Source: Promethearchaeia archaeon
GTDB taxonomy: Archaea; Asgardarchaeota; Lokiarchaeia; Sigyniarchaeales; SOKP01
Length of the DNA stretch: 45,359 nucleotides
NCBI GenBank assembly: GCA_046483985.1
Contig: JAWOCD010000100.1
Span: forward strand, 1-45,359
Direction: 5' to 3'
The notes beneath the pieces were generated by a model. The model saw only the letters and a program-made list of their open reading frames with translations, searched no databases and was not told where the DNA came from. Position numbers and translations under genes: made by a program. Positions within the stretch are counted from its first letter, which is position 1. Each line of letters begins with the position of its first letter. This document shows, piece by piece, positions 1 to 36,930 of the stretch.

Positions 1-294
1 AAGGCAGAAAAAATAGGTAAAAGAGTAATAAGAATTGACGAGTCTTATACCACACGGACTTGTGCAAAATGTGGAAGAAAAGCGAAACGCGATTTGTCCG
101 AGCGTGATATTAGTTGTGAATGTGGTCATAAGATGGATAGAGACTTAAATTCCGCTGTTAATATTATGGTAAAGTTTCTCACATCTGATGACCTATCGCA
201 TCAACCCTCTTTGAAGGAGGAATCCTTTCTAAAGCAATGGAACGGATTTTCTACGACACACAGCCCTAAGATATGCCCACCAGCTAACGCTTAG
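1..294 (+). CDS. tnpB: TnpB family RNA-guided endonuclease, C-terminal part (5' end outside window)
   Basis: Frame 1 is open from base 1: KAEKIGKRVIRIDESYTTRTCAKCG...CECGHKMDRDLNSAVNI. This has the YT(S/T)xxCxxCG zinc ribbon and the RuvC-III DRDxNxAxNI motif, and an IS200/IS605 right end follows. Confidence 0.93.
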   Translation, partial: KAEKIGKRVIRIDESYTTRTCAKCGRKAKRDLSERDISCECGHKMDRDLNSAVNIMVKFLTSDDLSHQPSLKEESFLKQWNGFSTTHSPKICPPANA

Positions 295-338
295 TGGACT
301 CGTAGGAATTCCCGTCCTTTAGGGCGGGGAGACTTCAA
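261..338 (+). mobile_element. IS200/IS605 right end / 3' part of TnpB omegaRNA scaffold
   Basis: GAAT (306-309), then hairpin CCCGTCC-TTTA-GGGCGGG (311-328), then terminal TCAA (335-338). An upstream stem-loop CCCAC..GTGG overlaps the tnpB stop. Confidence 0.9.
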
Positions 339-497
339 TTAGCCCTTTTTGAGAAAGAATATAGAAAAAGATGAGTCGATTGATGAGACGGTAGTATTTA
401 ATTTATTTCGAGCTAGCTCAAGAGCAGTAATCCTTTTTGCTAATTTAATAATGTGCTGCTGGATTTCTCCCAAAAATTGCTTCTCTATTCCTCTCAT
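339..497 (-). CDS. Possible small protein (52 aa, MRGIEKQFLGEIQQHIIKLAKRITALELARNKL...KKG)
   Basis: ATG at 497 and stop at 339-341, directly abutting the TCAA of the IS right end. Looks amphipathic-helical; no recognisable family. Confidence 0.25.
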   Translation of the reverse strand: MRGIEKQFLGEIQQHIIKLAKRITALELARNKLNTTVSSIDSSFSIFFLKKG

Positions 498-567
498 TGG
501 ATCAAAAAAGGTCAGATTTCATGAGTTAAAAAAAAGGAAAAAGAAAATCAATGCCAATCAATTTTCC

Positions 568-1305
568 CTAGTCTAAGACAGTCAGATCTGCACCGCATGT
601 TCCGCATTTTCCGAACTTTTTCATTTCCATAGAAATTGCCGCGCCGCATTCAGGACAAGTAAGATTGTCTAAATTTTCTAAAGCTTCATCCTTTTCCATC
701 CCTAATCGTGACCGGGCGTCCGTAGATAAGACGGTGCTGGGCGTAGAATAGGAAGATGAGGATTCCCAATCTAATTCATCCATCTCAATAGTATCCTTTA
801 CTTCGGTTACTATTGCAGTGGGGATAATTCCCGCATTTCCAAGCTCAAAGAAGTCCTCTTCCTTTATTTTAAACTTTTCCGTCCCGCATTCCTCGCATCG
901 GAGTTCAAAATATAATTTCTCTTTTTTATAATCCTGGAAATCCATGTGGTAGAATTCACCACATTTACAGATTAAATCGGCACCATATTTTCGAACTACT
1001 TTTTTGTTTTCCGAAAAGTACGCTCCGCCGAGCCCATCTTCAATCTGGACAAACTTACCGGCAGCGATCATGTACTTTCTTTGAAAATCCTTAATCCATT
1101 TCTCGTCAAGTAAATACATATTTCCCATCTTGAGGAACTCTTTGATGCTGTATTTTTCCTCAAGGTTTTCCATACAATCGCTGCAGAGGTATTTCGCGAT
1201 TACATCTTTTTTCGAGACTTTTAGCCCAACCATTTTAGCGTAATCATCGCATTTTGGGCACTTCTGGGTATTTCCCAATTCCTTAACGCCTCTAACCATT
1301 TTCAC
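568..1305 (-). CDS. Multi-zinc-ribbon hypothetical protein
   Basis: Three Cys-pair sets: CPKC..CSDC, CKC..CEEC and CPEC..CGTC. The first two modules resemble each other. Confidence 0.8.
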   Translation of the reverse strand: MKMVRGVKELGNTQKCPKCDDYAKMVGLKVSKKDVIAKYLCSDCMENLEEKYSIKEFLKMGNMYLLDEKWIKDFQRKYMIAAGKFVQIEDGLGGAYFSENKKVVRKYGADLICKCGEFYHMDFQDYKKEKLYFELRCEECGTEKFKIKEEDFFELGNAGIIPTAIVTEVKDTIEMDELDWESSSSYSTPSTVLSTDARSRLGMEKDEALENLDNLTCPECGAAISMEMKKFGKCGTCGADLTVLD

Positions 1306-1441
1306 ATCTCACTCTTTCTTTTCTTTCTATAATTATAATTAAATGTTTTCTGTATTTAATGCTTATTAAAATGAAAAATAATCATTTATGAAATTTCAAA
1401 TAAAGTTTCCAGATAAAAATAGGGATTAAAAAGAAATTAAA

Positions 1442-1945
1442 ATGAAAACCTCTTCTATTGAATATGAGACCTTCTTTAAAGTGAAGATTATGAGTAAACA
1501 GATGCCGAAGGATGTCTTGAAAAAAGAAATCAGAACCTTTTTAGAAATGAGAAAGGTGCTGGTCTTATGCACCTGCAGTGAAAATGTGCCAAGAGCTACT
1601 CCCTTGGATTTCTACATCAATAAACGAGACAAGGAAGATTTCACTATTTATTTGTGCCCGACGCCGGGAAGAAAGGTGGAAAATATAAAAAAGAATCCCA
1701 TCATCAGTATTGGAATATATACTCCGATGGATACCGGCAAAATTCAGGGAATGCAAATTACCGCATCGGAGACGGAACGATTACGCCTTTTAAGGGAGGA
1801 GGATGAGGGATTTGATGACGCACAAAAGATCGTGCGGGGCAAGAGAAAGCAGATTTTAAAGATTCTTCCCGACCGTATCGAATTGTTGGATTATGATTTT
1901 ATCCAACAAGGGTATTCGCGCCATCAGACCTTAGACTTAACTTGA
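1442..1945 (+). CDS. Pyridoxamine 5'-phosphate oxidase-like FMN-binding split-barrel protein
   Basis: VLVLCT..NVPRATPL and GRKVENIKKNPIISIGI motifs. The start could be the later ATG at 1490. Confidence 0.8.
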   Translation: MKTSSIEYETFFKVKIMSKQMPKDVLKKEIRTFLEMRKVLVLCTCSENVPRATPLDFYINKRDKEDFTIYLCPTPGRKVENIKKNPIISIGIYTPMDTGKIQGMQITASETERLRLLREEDEGFDDAQKIVRGKRKQILKILPDRIELLDYDFIQQGYSRHQTLDLT

Positions 1946-2018
1946 AAATTATATTCTTCATCCAAAAACAAAAATAACCTGAATCAACAGAATAAAGGTT
2001 CAATGAGCAGTTGATATA

Positions 2019-2237
2019 TTAAATTACCACACCCTAAAGGGCGATGGATTCGTAAATCATTGAAGATTGCTGATATACCATCAGTCTGCCATCTTCTCCA
2101 AACGCCAGCTCCGTAATCCCTACGGTTGGGGATGATCTTGGTTATGGTCCGTCAATGAAATTATAGTAGCGCTCCTTTATAAATATATGTGCGATTCATC
2201 ACCGCCCTTAAGGACGATCCTTTATCGCACTTTAGTA
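2019..2237 (-). mobile_element. Non-autonomous IS200/IS605 miniature element with omegaRNA-like scaffold (copy A, 219 bp)
   Basis: Minus strand order: TTAC target (2241-2238), 14 nt, AAAG, left hairpin ATCGTCC-TTAA-GGGCGGT, TATA-like TATATTTATAAAGG, stem CCGTAG-GGA-TTACGG, GAAT, right hairpin CCATCGCCC-TTTA-GGGTGTGG, TTAA. Homologous to 6513-6719. Confidence 0.88.
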
Positions 2238-2368
2238 GTAAATTACCAGATCTTATTCTATCCTTTACCATTATTTTAATCACTCAATAGGAAGAAAAGA
2301 TTATAGGAAATCTTTAATTTTTAATTATATTCATTGAGAAAATAATTAATTACTAAGAGCTAAAAGTA

Positions 2369-5323
2369 ATGACTTCCGAGGATTCATTAACGTCCCTAAA
2401 GAATTGTAAGAATGATAAGGAATTAAAAACGGCTTTTAAGAAAATTGCCTCAAAAGATCCCGATAAGTATTTTCCGACCGAAGAACTGAGAGAATTGGGC
2501 TATGCGAGGAAAAAATGCAAATGCGGAACTTATTTTTGGACCGTTTTGGAGGATAGAGAGTTCTGTGGAGATCCAGCTTGTTCTGGAGGTTTCGATGTTG
2601 TAGAAAATAATCCTACGCCCGTAAAGTTATCCTATGTGGGAGTATGGAAGAAGATTGTAGAAGTGTTGGAACCACGAGGTTATAAACCAATAAAGCGTTA
2701 TCCTTGCGTTGCACGTTGGAATCCGACGTCAGAATTTACTATTGCATCCATTTCGGCTTTCCAGCCTTATGTCATTACGGGTGAGGTGGATCCCCCAGCA
2801 AAAAAATTACTTATCCCTCAATTCTGCCTCCGCTTTAACGATATTGAAAATGTGGGCATTACAGGCTCTCACAATACTGGGTTCATAATGATTGGCCAAC
2901 ATACCTTTGTCTCTCCCGAAGAATGGGATCAAGGACAATTATTTATCGATATGCATGATTTCATCCACAAAGGAGTTGGTCTCGCAAAGGAAGAAATCAC
3001 CATTCATGAAGATAGTTGGGCGGGCGGTGGTTCATTTGGCTGCTCTTTAGAATTCTTCAGCAGAGGGGTGGAACTTTTCAACCAAGTATATACGATGTTC
3101 GAGCAGACTCCAGAAGGTCCCAGAGAACTCAAACTCAAAGTCCTTGATATGGGCTTGGGACAAGAGCGGGTTGCGTGGTTTTCCCAAGGAACTCCAAATA
3201 TGTATGAGGCAATTTTTCCTGAAGTATTGAAGAAGCTCCGGAAAAGAACCAAAATCGATTTAGACTTAGACCTATATAATCGTTTCTCAAAATACTCTGC
3301 TTATTTAAATATTGATGAGGTGGATGACTTATCTGAAGCGTGGAGGCGGGTGGCTGATGAACTCGATATGGAGGTAAAAAAACTGCGAGAAACCATACTT
3401 CCAATGACTGCGCTATATTCAATTGCAGAGCATGCAAGGACGCTCTTATTTGCGATTAATGATGGCAAATTACCCTCGAATGTCGGTGGAGGATATAATT
3501 TACGTGTAATATTTCGACGAGCCATTAGTTTTATTGACGAATTTGACTGGGATATAAACATTTCAGAGGTCTGCCGATGGCATGCAGAGGAACTACATGA
3601 AATGTTCCCAGAGGTCTCACAACATTTGGATGAGATTGAAGAGATCCTCGAGGTTGAGAAGGAAAAATTCTACACCACGAAACGAAAGGCAAGAAAAATC
3701 TTGAAAAAGTTGCTCAATAAAGGAGAGGAAATTACTATTAATACCTTAATTGAGTTATACGATTCCAACGGGATAAGTCCTGATATGGTAAAAAAAGCAG
3801 CACAGCGATATAATAAGGACGTAAAAATCCCCGATAATTTCTATAAGCGGGTGGTAGAAAAGCATGAACAATCTGAACAAGTATACGCAACTGAGAAGGC
3901 AACGGAATTAGATTTAGAAGGTGTTCCGGAAACCGAGTCCCTATATTATTACGATTATCGGAAAACATCCAATAAAGCAAATGTAGTAAAAATATTGGAT
4001 CATAAAGTCATCTTAGACAGATCAGTGGCTTATCCAACCTCGGGCGGACAATTACATGATATTGGGACGATAAATGGCCAAGAATTCGAAAAAGTGTTTA
4101 AACAAGGGAATCATATTATTCATATGATGAGCGAAGATCCCCAATTCCAAGAGGGGGATGAGGTAAAGGTTCAAGTGGACAGAGATTGGAGATTTCAGCT
4201 TTCTCAACATCATACAGCGACTCATATAGTGAACGCCGCAGCTCGCAAGGTTTTGGGAAGCCATATTAATCAAGCCGGTGCCAAAAAATCCTACAAAAGT
4301 TCTCATTTGGATATCACCCACTACGAACAGCTTTCTAAGGACCAACTTGATAGAATAGAAAGAGAGGCGAATGCTATTGTTAATAAGGAGATAGATATAA
4401 ATCTCGATTTTATCCCTCGATCAGAAGCCGAAAAACGGTACGGGATGAGAATATACCAAGGAGGGGCTGTACCCGGTAAGAAAATAAGGATTGTAGAAAT
4501 ACCTGGGATAGAAGTGGAAGCATGTGGGGGGACACATTTGAATAATACGGGGGAAGCAAAGGAGATCAAAATGCTGAAATCGCAGAAGATCCAAGACGGG
4601 ATTGTTCGGCTGAAGTTTGTAGCGGGTCGTGCAACGGAACGAATTGAAGAAAAGCACCAGCAGATCATCGAGGATCTTAAAGGATTACTAAACGTGGAAG
4701 AAGATAAGTTAGTCCCTCGCATAAAGGAATTATTTGAAAAATGGAAAAATGTAAATAAAGCCCTGAAATCGGGAGAAGTGAATAAAGAAGATCTTAGGTT
4801 ATCCTCTTCGGTAACTTTTGAAGGAGAAATCTTGGAAGAGATTTCCGACTTTTTAAATTTAAAGAAAGAACGTATCCCAAAAAAGGTACAAAAATTGTAT
4901 GATGAATGGACCTATGGAAAAGAGAAATTGGACAAGATGCAGAACCTTTTAAGCGAATCTCATCTAGAGCAATTAATTGAAGAAGCTTTCCCGTATAAAG
5001 ATTTTAAATTTGTATTGGAAGATTTTGAATGTCTCGATCAAGAAGATCTAAAAAATTTAAATATAAATGTTCTAGAGCAATCCGATAAATTGATTACCTT
5101 ATTACTTAACAAATTGAAGAATGGAATCATGGTAATGGGAATGGTTGCGGAAAAACCCTTGGAAAACTCTGATTTTCATATGGGCACTTTTGTTAAGGAT
5201 TTAGTGACCCGATTCGATGGAAAGGGAGGCGGCAATAAAGATTACGGGCAAGGGTTTATTAATAATCGAGATATAAAAATCAATGTTATCAAATCCTTCG
5301 TTAAAGAAAAGCTCGATTTATGA
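2369..5323 (+). CDS. alaS: Alanine--tRNA ligase (archaeal type)
   Basis: N-terminal CKCG..FWT..CGD zinc motif, QFCLRFNDIENVGITGSH, DMGLGQER, editing HHTATH and CGGTH, C-terminal DHHA1 GKGGG. Confidence 0.97.
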   Translation: MTSEDSLTSLKNCKNDKELKTAFKKIASKDPDKYFPTEELRELGYARKKCKCGTYFWTVLEDREFCGDPACSGGFDVVENNPTPVKLSYVGVWKKIVEVLEPRGYKPIKRYPCVARWNPTSEFTIASISAFQPYVITGEVDPPAKKLLIPQFCLRFNDIENVGITGSHNTGFIMIGQHTFVSPEEWDQGQLFIDMHDFIHKGVGLAKEEITIHEDSWAGGGSFGCSLEFFSRGVELFNQVYTMFEQTPEGPRELKLKVLDMGLGQERVAWFSQGTPNMYEAIFPEVLKKLRKRTKIDLDLDLYNRFSKYSAYLNIDEVDDLSEAWRRVADELDMEVKKLRETILPMTALYSIAEHARTLLFAINDGKLPSNVGGGYNLRVIFRRAISFIDEFDWDINISEVCRWHAEELHEMFPEVSQHLDEIEEILEVEKEKFYTTKRKARKILKKLLNKGEEITINTLIELYDSNGISPDMVKKAAQRYNKDVKIPDNFYKRVVEKHEQSEQVYATEKATELDLEGVPETESLYYYDYRKTSNKANVVKILDHKVILDRSVAYPTSGGQLHDIGTINGQEFEKVFKQGNHIIHMMSEDPQFQEGDEVKVQVDRDWRFQLSQHHTATHIVNAAARKVLGSHINQAGAKKSYKSSHLDITHYEQLSKDQLDRIEREANAIVNKEIDINLDFIPRSEAEKRYGMRIYQGGAVPGKKIRIVEIPGIEVEACGGTHLNNTGEAKEIKMLKSQKIQDGIVRLKFVAGRATERIEEKHQQIIEDLKGLLNVEEDKLVPRIKELFEKWKNVNKALKSGEVNKEDLRLSSSVTFEGEILEEISDFLNLKKERIPKKVQKLYDEWTYGKEKLDKMQNLLSESHLEQLIEEAFPYKDFKFVLEDFECLDQEDLKNLNINVLEQSDKLITLLLNKLKNGIMVMGMVAEKPLENSDFHMGTFVKDLVTRFDGKGGGNKDYGQGFINNRDIKINVIKSFVKEKLDL

Positions 5324-5334
5324 TTCCCAGATTT

Positions 5335-5380
5335 AACGATCTGCGAAAGAAGTCCCCATCCCTTTAGGGTGGGGATGAAA
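5335..5380 (+). mobile_element. IS200/IS605-type left end hairpin
   Basis: TGCGAAAGAAG-TCCCCATCCC-TTTA-GGGTGGGGA-TGAAA has the same layout as the left ends at 6521-6555 and 2229-2195 (TGC..AAG, hairpin, ATGA). The exact left boundary is uncertain. Confidence 0.75.
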
Positions 5381-5503
5381 GACTTAGACCTATATAATCG
5401 TTTCTCAAAATACTCTGCTTATTTAAATATTGATGAGGTAGATGACTTATCTGAAGCGTGGAGGCGGGTGGCTGATGAACTCGATATGGAGGTAAAAAAA
5501 CTG
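5380..5503 (+). repeat. Direct duplication of alaS-internal segment 3262-3385
   Basis: 124 bp ungapped with one mismatch (G3322 vs A5440), read directly from the sequence. Confidence 0.97.
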
Positions 5504-5579
5504 AGATAAAACAAAATAGCACTAAAGCAAACTAATTAATAGAAAGAAAATTATTACTATCTAATTTGTAAATGATTGA

Positions 5580-6005
5580 TTGAAAATGACTAGACCCAAA
5601 ACCCCACTTTTGACAGTGGATGCACTTATCGTATATAAATCCGCTAAACTTATTTTAATAAAACGGAAGAATCCCCCCTTTAAAGGAGAATACGCATTGC
5701 CGGGAGGCTTTGTAGATATTGGAGAAACGGTCGAAGAGGCTTGCATTCGAGAGGCTATAGAGGAAACAAATATAGATGTGAAGATCACTAAGCTGGTGGG
5801 AGTTTATTCAGATCCAAATAGAGACCCCCGAAGCCATACAGTATCAATAGCATTTCTATGTACCCCTCAAACGCATAACGAACAACCTAAAGCTCAAGAC
5901 GATGCCGCAGATCTGGATTTAATTGCCTTTAAACAAATACCGAATTTAGAATTAGCATTTGACCATATGAGAATAATTCAGGATGCTGGACTACTCCAGT
6001 CCTGA
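5580..6005 (+). CDS. NUDIX hydrolase (ADP-ribose pyrophosphatase-like)
   Basis: Nudix box ALPGGFVDIGETVEEACIREAIEETNI, plus YSDPNRDPR and LAFDH motifs. Confidence 0.93.
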   Translation: MKMTRPKTPLLTVDALIVYKSAKLILIKRKNPPFKGEYALPGGFVDIGETVEEACIREAIEETNIDVKITKLVGVYSDPNRDPRSHTVSIAFLCTPQTHNEQPKAQDDAADLDLIAFKQIPNLELAFDHMRIIQDAGLLQS

Positions 6006-6074
6006 GATATGCCCACCAGCGAACGCTAAGTGGGCTCTTAGTAATCCCCCCCCTTTAGGTAGGGGGGGCTTCAA
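5997..6074 (+). mobile_element. Orphan IS200/IS605 right end homologous to the tnpB-associated right end at 261-338
   Basis: Ungapped 78-nt alignment to 261-338, 64/78 identical by hand count. Both stem-loops and the terminal TCAA (6071-6074) are retained. Confidence 0.9.
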
Positions 6075-6370
6075 TGCAACATTTTAAGCTCAAAATAATC
6101 GATGATCTCCTTTATTTCCTTCGCAATAGAATTAAGAATGTTAAGATATTCTGTAAGAATTAATTCGCTATGAATATTTTCAATTTTTTCTAATTTTTGA
6201 GTAATCTTCATCTTTAATGATCGGATTATCTCTCTTGCAAATGGACACTCTGCTGCTTTTGAGAGCCGTCGTAAAACCTCTAACTTACTCCGCAAATACA
6301 TCTTCACGTTAAAATTATTTATTTCGAAGATCTCAACACAATTCCATAGGATATAATGATTTCGACTCAT
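6071..6370 (-). CDS. Hypothetical helical protein
   Basis: 99-aa ORF with no recognisable motif. Its TGA stop coincides with the TCA of the IS right end. The start may be the internal Met (MYLRSK). Confidence 0.55.
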   Translation of the reverse strand: MSRNHYILWNCVEIFEINNFNVKMYLRSKLEVLRRLSKAAECPFAREIIRSLKMKITQKLEKIENIHSELILTEYLNILNSIAKEIKEIIDYFELKMLH

Positions 6371-6512
6371 AATAACTGCAATTTAAATTTTCATTTTTCA
6401 AATTCTCAACTTATAAAAAAAATGTGAATATCATTATTAAAGACTTTTAGAGACCAATTTTTGACAAAAGAAGGGAGGAATGAGAAAACAAATGTTCGAA
6501 ACTTGACTTTAC

Positions 6513-6719
6513 CCATAGAGTGCAAGAAAGCACCGTCCTTTAGGGCAGTGATGATTCACACACATATATATAAAGGAGCGATGGATGATAGCCAAATTCA
6601 TCATATAACCGCAGGGACTGTGGGGCTGGCGTTTGAAGAGGATTTAAGACCGATGTTATCTATGTCGGCGATTCTGGATGAGTTCCGAATCCATCGCCCT
6701 TTAGGACGTGGTAGTTCAA
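6513..6719 (+). mobile_element. Non-autonomous IS200/IS605 miniature element with omegaRNA-like scaffold (copy B, 207 bp)
   Basis: TTAC (6509-6512), 14 nt, AAAG (6527-6530), hairpin CACCGTCC-TTTA-GGGCAGTG, TATATATAAA (6565-6574), stem CCGCAG-GGA-CTGTGG, GAAT (6687-6690), hairpin, TCAA (6716-6719). Confidence 0.9.
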
Positions 6720-6745
6720 TATCCGATACAGAGGAAAACCCCATT

Positions 6746-7510
6746 TTAGTGCTTAAAATATTTAGAAAAACATTCGCAACAGGGAATTCCGAAACCTATC
6801 TGTAACTCAGAGTTACTACTCTTTTCAGAGGAAAGTGCATTTAAGAATTGTTCCTTAATTGTCCGTATTTCGGGTTGAAGGCTAAAATAAAATCTTTTCA
6901 GATAATTTTCATGATTTTTTGCGTTGCAAATTGGACATCTGGTAAATTGGTTAAGGAAATTCTTAAGTCGCTCATCATACGTGGGGGCTACCAAAATAAA
7001 TTTCCGAATATTGGAAATTAACTCTAATCTGGCAATTAACGATTTAAAGACTTTCTCTCTCATATCTTGGGACTTGGAAACCTCAAAGAAGTCATAGATA
7101 TGAGATTTTTCCATAAAATCCTCAATTTCTTCAATTGATACTTCATAAGGAAGATCTGCTTTTGTACCCAATAGAATAAAGGGGATATTTGGATTTTCTT
7201 TCCTTATTATTTTCACCCACCAAGGAAGCTTAAGAAACGATTCTCTATCGGTAAAAGAGAAAGTAAGTATCGCGGCTGTTGCACCCCTACTATAAGTTGA
7301 ATGAAGGCTGAGATGGGGTTTAGTTGCTTTCAATTCCCATATAATAAGCTTGAAGTATTGTTTTTCATTTATCAAGCATTCTACCTTTCTTAAATTAACA
7401 CCCAAAGGACTTTTCTCTGGGTCTGGGGGTTTTCCCCCATTTAAGAAAATACTTTTACCCGAATTAGGTGCGCCGGTGAGAACTACTTTTAGAAGATATT
7501 CTTGAGAAAT
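6746..7510 (-). CDS. Degenerate Rab/Ras-like small GTPase with C-terminal Cys-rich (zinc-binding) domain; extends upstream of the ORF-track call
   Basis: The frame stays open from 7405 to 7516 and encodes ISQEYLLKVVLTGAPNSGKS (P-loop). G4 is GTKAD and the C-terminus has CPIC...CCECF. ATT at 7510 aligns with the paralogue's ATG and follows a GGTGA motif. Confidence 0.82.
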   Translation of the reverse strand: MSQEYLLKVVLTGAPNSGKSIFLNGGKPPDPEKSPLGVNLRKVECLINEKQYFKLIIWELKATKPHLSLHSTYSRGATAAILTFSFTDRESFLKLPWWVKIIRKENPNIPFILLGTKADLPYEVSIEEIEDFMEKSHIYDFFEVSKSQDMREKVFKSLIARLELISNIRKFILVAPTYDERLKNFLNQFTRCPICNAKNHENYLKRFYFSLQPEIRTIKEQFLNALSSEKSSNSELQIGFGIPCCECFSKYFKH

Positions 7511-7624
7511 TTTTACTCACCACAATAGAATAAAATTAGAATTAAAGACCTATGTAATTATCCTCTAATAGAATATATATTTCTTTTTATTTCGAATTTA
7601 TGATAAGAATTTAAAGCGATATTT

Positions 7625-8413
7625 TCAATCAGAAAAAAACTTTTTAAAACATTTGCAGCAAGGAATCCCAATTTCTATAATATTTTGATACTGCGATTTT
7701 CTTTCCATTATTTCTAGTATTTTCTCCTTAAGGATTTTGGTCTCTGGATCCTTCGAAAAATAAAACTTCTTTAAATAATCTTTATGATTCCTTTTTCCGC
7801 AGATAATGCAATTTTGGAAGGTTTCTGCGAACTCCTTAAATTTATCATCTTGCTCAGGTAAAATTAACTCAATTTCATCGAAATTTAACTTGGGGTGTAA
7901 TGTTTGAATTAAAACCCTGTAGATTTCTTTTTTAACAACTTTTAAATGGGGATCCTTGATGGAAGTAAAGAATATATCGCGAAAGTTGTGCTCTTCTAAT
8001 AAATCAAAAATCTCCTCCTCGGTGACGACTTTTTCTAGATCATTTTTGGTGCCTAATAGAATGAGGGGTACATTTCCTACGCTTTCTCTGATAATTTGGA
8101 CCCAATCCTCAACCTGTTTGAAGGAGTTATGATCATTTACATCAAAACAAATGATAGCCCCACATGCACCTTTACAGAAGGTATCATACATAAATTTAAG
8201 CCGTTCGGTAGCTTTTAAATCCCAGATGGTAAACTTATAAGAATCAGTGACTTCTCGATTCTTTTTTTTTAACAGAACTTCGTTTCTTTTGAAGGCCAAC
8301 CCGATATGTTCAAAAGTATTGTCTTGTAAGGGAGAGTCTTCAAACAGAAATGTGGTCTTACCTGATAGAGCTGCTCCACATAAAATCAATTTCAGCTCGA
8401 ATTGTTTAGACAT
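7625..8413 (-). CDS. Rab/Ras-like small GTPase with C-terminal Cys-rich (zinc-binding) domain
   Basis: G1 GAALSGKTT, G3 region IWDLKATERL, GAIICFDV, G4 GTKND, C-terminal CIICGKRNH...IPCCKCF. Confidence 0.88.
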   Translation of the reverse strand: MSKQFELKLILCGAALSGKTTFLFEDSPLQDNTFEHIGLAFKRNEVLLKKKNREVTDSYKFTIWDLKATERLKFMYDTFCKGACGAIICFDVNDHNSFKQVEDWVQIIRESVGNVPLILLGTKNDLEKVVTEEEIFDLLEEHNFRDIFFTSIKDPHLKVVKKEIYRVLIQTLHPKLNFDEIELILPEQDDKFKEFAETFQNCIICGKRNHKDYLKKFYFSKDPETKILKEKILEIMERKSQYQNIIEIGIPCCKCFKKFFSD

Positions 8414-36246: not shown

Positions 36247-36280
36247 TTGAACTACTCACGCCTGAAGATGTGAGATTCGT
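36247..36280 (-). mobile_element. IS200/IS605 right-end remnant
   Basis: Minus strand GAAT-CTCACATC-TTCA-GGCGTGAG-TAGT-TCAA has the same architecture as 6687-6719. Confidence 0.8.
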
Positions 36281-36508
36281 ACTTCCTAATTCGTAATACC
36301 CACGCTAGACAATACAATAAAGATTATATGACTTAATATTAGTTTGATACGTTCTTAACCATTAAATGTAACCCATATAACAAGAATAACCGTGAAATGT
36401 GACTGACACAGTCAGAAAAAATCTGGACATATCGGGACAACTTGACAAATCCTCAATGGATCGCTGACTGACGATCGCGGTAAACGCCCCATGGCGCGCA
36501 CCAACGAC

Positions 36509-36930
36509 TTATGCATATGCAGCCCGCGGTTGCGCGTTGGAAATATTGTGGGTGGCGTTAAGATCGGCGTCAAGCCGATACGGTATTGTATGATTCTTAC
36601 ATGTAAATGCTTTTCCATCGCGATTTCCCCTCCTTCCGCATTTTGATCAGCGTTTTAAGGTCCCCGCGGCGGGCACCGTCACGAAAGTGTAACCCTCGAT
36701 CGCTTGCCGTTAAAACCACATCACCTCCCATCTGGCCAAAAATTTGTCGACTTTTTGCTTGGCAGAGTGTCGTGAAAAGCGCAAATCCTCGAATTTAATG
36801 GTTGTTACGTTCCAGCTCTTTGCGATGGCGATGAGATTGTGCGAGGTCAAGTTCACAATGGTCTTATTGAGATTTCGCATCCTCACATACTGCTGGGTGC
36901 GGTTATAGGCGAAGTTTTCGCTATAACATC
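36509..36930 (-). pseudogene. tnpB: TnpB/Cas12f-like RuvC nuclease pseudogene (3' fragment)
   Basis: Minus strand reads ..LTSHNLIAIAKSWNVTTIKFEDLRF (RuvC-II). After a frameshift it reads FVTVPAAGTLKR*SKCG..FTCK..LDADLNATHNI (zinc ribbon with Cys-to-TGA at 36647-36649; RuvC-III). Visibly GC-richer than the flanks. Confidence 0.85.

Follow-up and report, generated by a model that had tools for sequence, protein, structure and literature searches.

A 207-nt element that has no gene of its own and is bounded by ends of the IS200/IS605 type raises the question of whether it is still at work in the genome of its Loki-type Asgard host or is the remains of a transposon. The element lies at positions 6513-6719 (+) of the window, i.e., the whole stretch of 45,359 nucleotides that was analysed. 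A previous sequence-only reading had taken it for a self-contained guide-RNA cassette, with a promoter and an omega-RNA scaffold between IS608-type ends, in which each insertion could make a new guide for a TnpB supplied in trans. The element was followed up in its genome assembly, a draft of 4.06 Mb in 128 contigs (35% G+C, 97% complete, 4.8% contamination) whose contigs are broken by repeats, and in 151 genomes of the same order, all from other genera. Archaeal SSU rRNA was looked for in the assembly and not found. The scaffold was searched for with a covariance model (R1; 110 positions, 32 pairs) built from 30 copies.

Ends and internal parts of the element

The borders of the element, hereafter copy A, were set by an alignment of 18 full-length copies, in which similarity begins directly after TTTAC and ends directly after TTCAA and the flanks are unrelated. 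In copy A the TTTAC motif occupies 6508-6512 (+); it includes the IS608-type left cleavage site TTAC (6509-6512) and would be the putative TAM for a TnpB. A 14-nt spacer (6513-6526) separates TTAC from the left end proper (6527-6550), which consists of the guide tetramer AAAG (6527-6530) and the left subterminal hairpin (6531-6550; 8 bp, a TTTA loop and one C.A mismatch unique to copy A). Around this hairpin an outer stem is formed by 6520-6525 with 6556-6561, two pairs of which are broken in copy A. The outer stem covaries, being GTGCGA/TCGCAC in the copies of this genome and GCAAAA/TTTTGC in the intact elements L045, L047 and L048 of relatives, and the right hairpin is enclosed likewise, by TGAATTA/TAGTTCA. 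The right end (6687-6719) comprises GAAT (6687-6690), the right hairpin (6691-6711), TAGT and the cleavage site TCAA (6716-6719). The end tetramers of IS608 are CL TTAC / GL AAAG and CR TCAA / GR GAAT (PMC5934647), and all of them are present in copy A. Both ends thus carry subterminal imperfect palindromes, and inverted terminal repeats are absent. The IS608-type ends had been described correctly by the sequence-only reading, coordinates included, and its statement that the element is protein-free was also borne out, with no Pfam match and no conserved frame.

Between the ends, a TATA-like box (TATATATAAA; family consensus TTTATAAA) at 6565-6574 is kept in 17 of the 18 copies. Next comes the point, at 6579/6580, where copy A alone has lost 18 nt (gap at alignment columns 70-87), and then stem P1 (6580-6602; GATGGA / TTCATC), which is specific to the subfamily, with 90.7% of cells paired and no covariation. 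The omega-RNA-type scaffold extends over 6606-6719 (R1, 107 bits) and represents what is left of the final ~40 codons of tnpB together with the right end. Its stems are P2 (6609-6623; CCGCAG-GGA-CTGTGG), P3 (6638-6643/6671-6676), P4 (6650-6654/6664-6668), P5 (6679-6685/6712-6718) and P6, the right hairpin itself (6691-6711), with a bulged T and one C.A mismatch. The box had been placed 30-40 nt before the first stem, and the measured distance to P2 is 35 nt. By analogy with characterised TnpB systems (PMC8612924), the flanking bases 6720-6735 (+) would be the guide, were a read-through transcript loaded into a TnpB.

The TATA-like box is likewise found behind left ends that lead into remnants of tnpB, e.g., C71:19615-19651, and for this reason it is probably a promoter of the parent: as judged from sequence, a candidate archaeal promoter inherited with the parent's left end. 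Scans for sigma-70 promoters are inapplicable to archaea. It was also considered whether the codons ATG-AAT-CGC-ACA-TAT-ATT-TAT-AAA after the left hairpin are an old tnpB start (MNRTYIYK), so that the box would be mere codons. As a conserved frame this was rejected because most other left ends read ...ACA-TAG...; as the ancestry of the box region such a start is possible.

Copies of the element in the genome

A BLAST search of the whole genome revealed 18 full-length copies of 207-225 nt, a length insufficient for a transposase gene, plus many partial ones, and R1 located 46 scaffold-bearing sites. Copy A scores 107 bits in the window (E 6e-20), and the observation is far beyond chance. The window holds a second full-length copy, copy B (219 nt, 2019-2237, - strand; 116.6 bits), which is preceded by TTTAC at 2238-2242 and whose right terminus has mutated to TTTAA. 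Across the 18 full copies, TTTAC stands at the 5' side of 13 and one-base variants of it at the other 5, and no target duplication was seen. Pairwise identity among these copies is 68-92%, so that every pair differs by at least 8%; the copy nearest to copy A is 88% identical to it. With no pair more alike than 92%, the copies give no indication of having moved recently.

Several rearranged or shortened relatives of the element were also observed. At least two copies of a chimera are located at contig ends (G000 C97:58750-59188 and C13:38100-38456), in which the first ~195 nt of the mini-element are joined, within the right hairpin, to an inverted IS608-like left end and the first 43 tnpA codons. 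Elsewhere in the window, at 36247-36308 (-), a sister subfamily has left a lone right end, in which a hairpin is followed by TAGTTCAA (R1, 23.6 bits, E 0.0045); ~250 nt upstream of it, a piece of a tnpB zinc ribbon that is richer in G+C is interrupted by a stop (36542-36697, -).

Folding of the scaffold

The helices were defined by hand and then tested, because RNAalifold, when applied to the whole element, gave an incomplete structure. In the 18 full copies the eight helices were paired in 88.6% of cells, as compared with 35-42% when the partners were slid, and many copies could accordingly still fold. A similar value (88.8%) was obtained for the 30 scaffold copies of this genome. The frequent G.U pairs fit the + strand only.

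Compensatory changes were distributed differently in the relatives and in the resident copies. In 20 sites from relatives, in an alignment fitted to R1, 92.8% of cells were paired, versus 25-48% with slid partners, and in the same fitted alignment 16 of the 32 pairs had a compensatory change, versus 8.6 +/- 1.5 after shuffling, with 0 of 500 shuffles reaching as high. Among the copies of this genome, 9 pairs showed a double change against a shuffled mean of 8.9, and the compensatory changes separate subfamilies. Such changes probably arose in the source elements and not in the resident copies.

Relationship to tnpB

Read in frame, the 3' 114 nt of the element give T(A/V)GT(A/T)GLAFGEDVRP...RIHRPLGRGSS, a typical C-terminal tail of TnpB. 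A sister subfamily (e.g., C74:15399-15590, C41:81749-82013 and C31:1-191) retains ~25 further tnpB codons, back to the DRDVNAS nuclease motif; BLAST extension upstream of these copies never reached an intact tnpB. R1 found matches in 40 of the 151 genomes of the order. In relatives, the match lies at the end of intact ORFs of 404-439 aa, with the stop codon inside the match, and these ORFs carry the Pfam domains HTH_OrfB_IS605, OrfB_IS605 and the TNB zinc ribbon. The relatives' cognate TnpB resembles the solved ISDra2 TnpB over residues 2-374 (E 1e-66). A left end of like design (TTTAC, AAAG and hairpin) is present upstream of several of the intact ORFs.

Judged by homology only, the scaffold has the position expected of an omega RNA, given that the R1 matches end at the right end of the intact TnpB elements of relatives. 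The 3' block of the element is thus, on sequence homology, the omega-RNA region of its parent. Since the scaffold matches the 3' ends of intact tnpB genes in relatives and the left ends are alike, the element appears to be an internal-deletion derivative of a tnpB-only IS200/IS605 element. The anatomy proposed by the sequence-only reading, including an omega-RNA-type scaffold at the right end, gains support from these matches to the 3' ends of intact TnpB genes and from the compensatory changes found there. In Rfam, no family matched the window at the gathering threshold, and none matched positions 1-7500 at E <= 1. Apparently intact tnpB-only elements were noted in related Asgard genomes (L038:336-1592, L043, L044, L045, L047, L048, L054 and L061), with a flank of the TTTAC type.

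Partner genes and decay of the copies

An intact cognate tnpB was not found in the 97%-complete draft, neither with R1 nor in a search with the cognate TnpB of a relative; only C-terminal tails and fragments were present. The sequence-only reading had suggested looking for a tnpB with a matching 3' end and had itself named the lack of one in the genome as evidence against its proposal, which for this draft is what was found. Since contig C31 has its start within the 3' end of a tnpB of the cognate type, an intact gene may exist in unassembled sequence. The tnpB remnants of the genome belong to two groups, an abundant tnpA-tnpB family and the fragments C18, C24 and C71. The sole near-full TnpB (C97:57-1211) belongs to the former and thus to another family, with 32% identity to the relative's cognate TnpB. 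The abundant family, whose 3' end lies at window 1-339, was rejected as a supplier in trans, as R1 scores its scaffold at 10.8 bits (E 1.7). The family of C18, C24 and C71 has the last 34 nt of the right end in common with the mini-element, and these 34 nt of copy A are 94% identical to the right ends just 3' of the remnants C18:104495-104717 and C24:23624-23894. As the cognate gene these remnants were likewise rejected: their upstream scaffold differs (GGGTGG/CCACCC stem) and gives no R1 match at E <= 0.01. The three longest tnpA copies (C67, C66 and C97) are all broken by frameshifts or stops.

Many contigs of the assembly end in the abundant tnpA-tnpB (IS608-like) element, and the contig studied here starts in the 3' end of its tnpB (window 1-339, +), with a right end of GAAT, hairpin, AGAC and TTCAA at about 315-339. 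A left end of the family occurs at ~5335-5380 (+), and a solo right-end piece at 5997-6075 (+), just past a NUDIX gene, is 82% identical to 261-339.

Gene-less copies without an intact cognate gene are also found in relatives: in the drafts of four copy-rich genomes (G088, G006, G130 and G054) such a gene was not detected. An intact cognate gene (447 aa) is present in G127; there, the scaffold of the intact cognate-clade TnpBs is more divergent (38-40 bits) than that of the gene-less copies.

The resident copies decay neutrally. Private substitutions are equally dense in paired and unpaired columns (0.46 versus 0.38 per column), and 10 of the 35 private changes in paired positions kept the pair, which is the neutral expectation (28%); the counts behind this singleton test are modest (62 events). 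Copy A has decayed in further respects. The 18 nt that it lacks just past the TATA-like box are present in the other 17 copies, and the deletion would have removed the stretch where transcription would start. Moreover, 3 of its 38 scaffold pairs are broken, there is one mismatch in each end hairpin, and when folded alone copy A does not adopt the family fold (z = -0.81).

Discussion

Based on the results of this study, copy A is very probably an old and decayed non-autonomous derivative of an IS200/IS605 element, i.e., a PATE, which carries the omega-RNA end of its parent and whose partners are apparently gone. Such a PATE would have arisen by internal deletion of a tnpB-only (IS1341-type) element. 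What it retained would be the left end, hairpin and TATA-like box included, some dozens of further bases, the final ~40 codons of tnpB, now non-coding, and the right end. Transcription of the parent through and beyond its right end would provide TnpB with a guide matching the flank, and TnpB would then cut the TTTAC site again once excision had left it empty. The partners would since have been lost here, as it appears, leaving the copies, copy A included, to drift. Promoter activity, a transcript and past mobilisation by TnpA are what we infer for such an element.

A working self-promoted cassette, in which the omega RNA of each insertion takes its guide from the 3' flank and acts with a TnpB supplied in trans, would account for a scaffold that derives from an omega RNA and is largely able to fold in the various copies, and for a TATA-like box upstream of it. 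Standalone omega RNAs acting in trans are documented elsewhere, and contig C31, beginning within a cognate-type tnpB tail, leaves room for a suitable gene. However, the draft genome offers no intact cognate tnpB, and for the near-full TnpB of C97 (32% identity) the scaffold reaches only 10.8 bits with R1 (E 1.7). Private mutations fall without regard to pairing, copy A is missing 18 nt at the would-be transcription start in addition to having broken pairs, and the copy-rich relatives also lack an intact cognate gene in their drafts. We consider a working cassette decidedly improbable. What stands of the proposal that a promoter and a scaffold have been kept is the TATA-like box as a shared feature of the left ends and the homology of the scaffold; the live cassette is unsupported, given the missing cognate tnpB in the draft, the neutral decay, and the deletion and misfolding of copy A. 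A wider version of the idea, that in Loki-type archaea the family serves, or served until recently, as a trans-guide system, with the cognate TnpB present in some genomes (the 447-aa protein of G127; L038) and here perhaps unassembled, is unlikely, though less so. If it were true, the cognate TnpB would bring about the retention of gene-less copies or would draw additional guides from them.

The surroundings of the element suggest another function, exaptation as a regulatory element whose outward promoter or stable hairpins act on neighbouring genes. Two tandem genes for small GTPases of the Ras/Roc family, which accord with an Asgard host, adjoin the element (6746-8413, -). The right end of copy A is located 26 nt beyond the stop of the nearer GTPase gene (6746-7405, -) and points into it, and copy B has a similar orientation, towards and into the 3' end of the ORF 1442-1945; for copy A, the effect could be antisense transcripts that enter the GTPase gene from its 3' end, or the hairpins could be terminator-like. 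On the other hand, the resident copies show no sign of selection, their position relative to genes varies, and nothing further speaks in favour of regulation, which is accordingly even less probable than a working cassette. Least credible of all, to the point of being negligible, is that the 114-codon frame running through the element (6461-6805, +) encodes a small protein. The frame is open, which is a legacy of the tnpB tail frame, but the 114-aa ORF has no Pfam match, starts outside the element in unrelated flank, and is broken among copies by 1- and 4-nt indels; because a 4-nt loop indel between copies breaks the frame, the element is taken as non-coding. Nothing suggests a live function at the copy A locus. 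A separate repeat was noted upstream of it: the window contains a 134-nt direct repeat of 97% identity (5380-5513 versus 3262-3395), the upstream copy of which (3262-3395) lies inside the alanyl-tRNA synthetase gene (2369-5323), so that a fragment of this gene has been duplicated just downstream.

To recognise copy A and its relatives as decayed PATEs is useful for annotation. The label of IS200/IS605 remnant with a TnpB guide-RNA scaffold can be given to the ~46 intergenic structured repeats found here and to their counterparts elsewhere in the order (at least 40 of the 151 genomes searched), which avoids misreading them as novel small RNAs or small genes. In addition, R1 locates intact elements with an ISDra2-like TnpB in Asgard relatives; their scaffold is thereby defined, their target motif is likely TTTAC, and they would be the place to test whether gene-less guide cassettes are used in trans in archaea.

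Comparison with known systems

The element shares with IS608 of Helicobacter pylori identical cleavage and guide tetramers (TTAC/AAAG and TCAA/GAAT), and with ISDra2 of Deinococcus radiodurans a scaffold that overlaps the tnpB tail and the right end. It differs in that, to judge from relatives, the parent was apparently tnpB-only (IS1341-type), the target motif seems to span 5 nt (TTTAC), and the scaffold matches no Rfam family.

Gene-less PATEs and standalone omega RNAs, and hence the idea of a guide cassette itself, are already in print. According to Meers et al. (2023, PMC10055086), it is common for PATEs to encode an omega RNA, whose use would depend on a TnpB supplied in trans, and activity in trans was demonstrated for standalone omega RNAs (Altae-Tran et al., summarised in PMC10691335). 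These elements resemble the present family in being protein-less IS200/IS605 derivatives with an omega-RNA scaffold that would need TnpB from another element; in their genomes compatible effectors coexist with them and the RNAs are expressed, whereas here a compatible TnpB was not found and the copies look neutral.

A close likeness is also seen with the PATEs of Haloquadratum walsbyi, e.g., HqIRS71, which were named in 2011 and one of which has a C-terminal coding remnant (Dyall-Smith et al. 2011, PMC3119063). A search of the literature found no paper on such gene-less elements in Asgard archaea. Both groups are gene-less elements of the IS605 type with subterminal palindromes and without inverted terminal repeats or target duplication, and both comprise many diverged copies that originated by deletion of the core. 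The elements described here differ in their Asgard (Loki-type) host and in belonging to an unrelated sequence family, and the block that they have retained matches an RNA structure which shows covariation and lies at the 3' end of intact tnpB genes.
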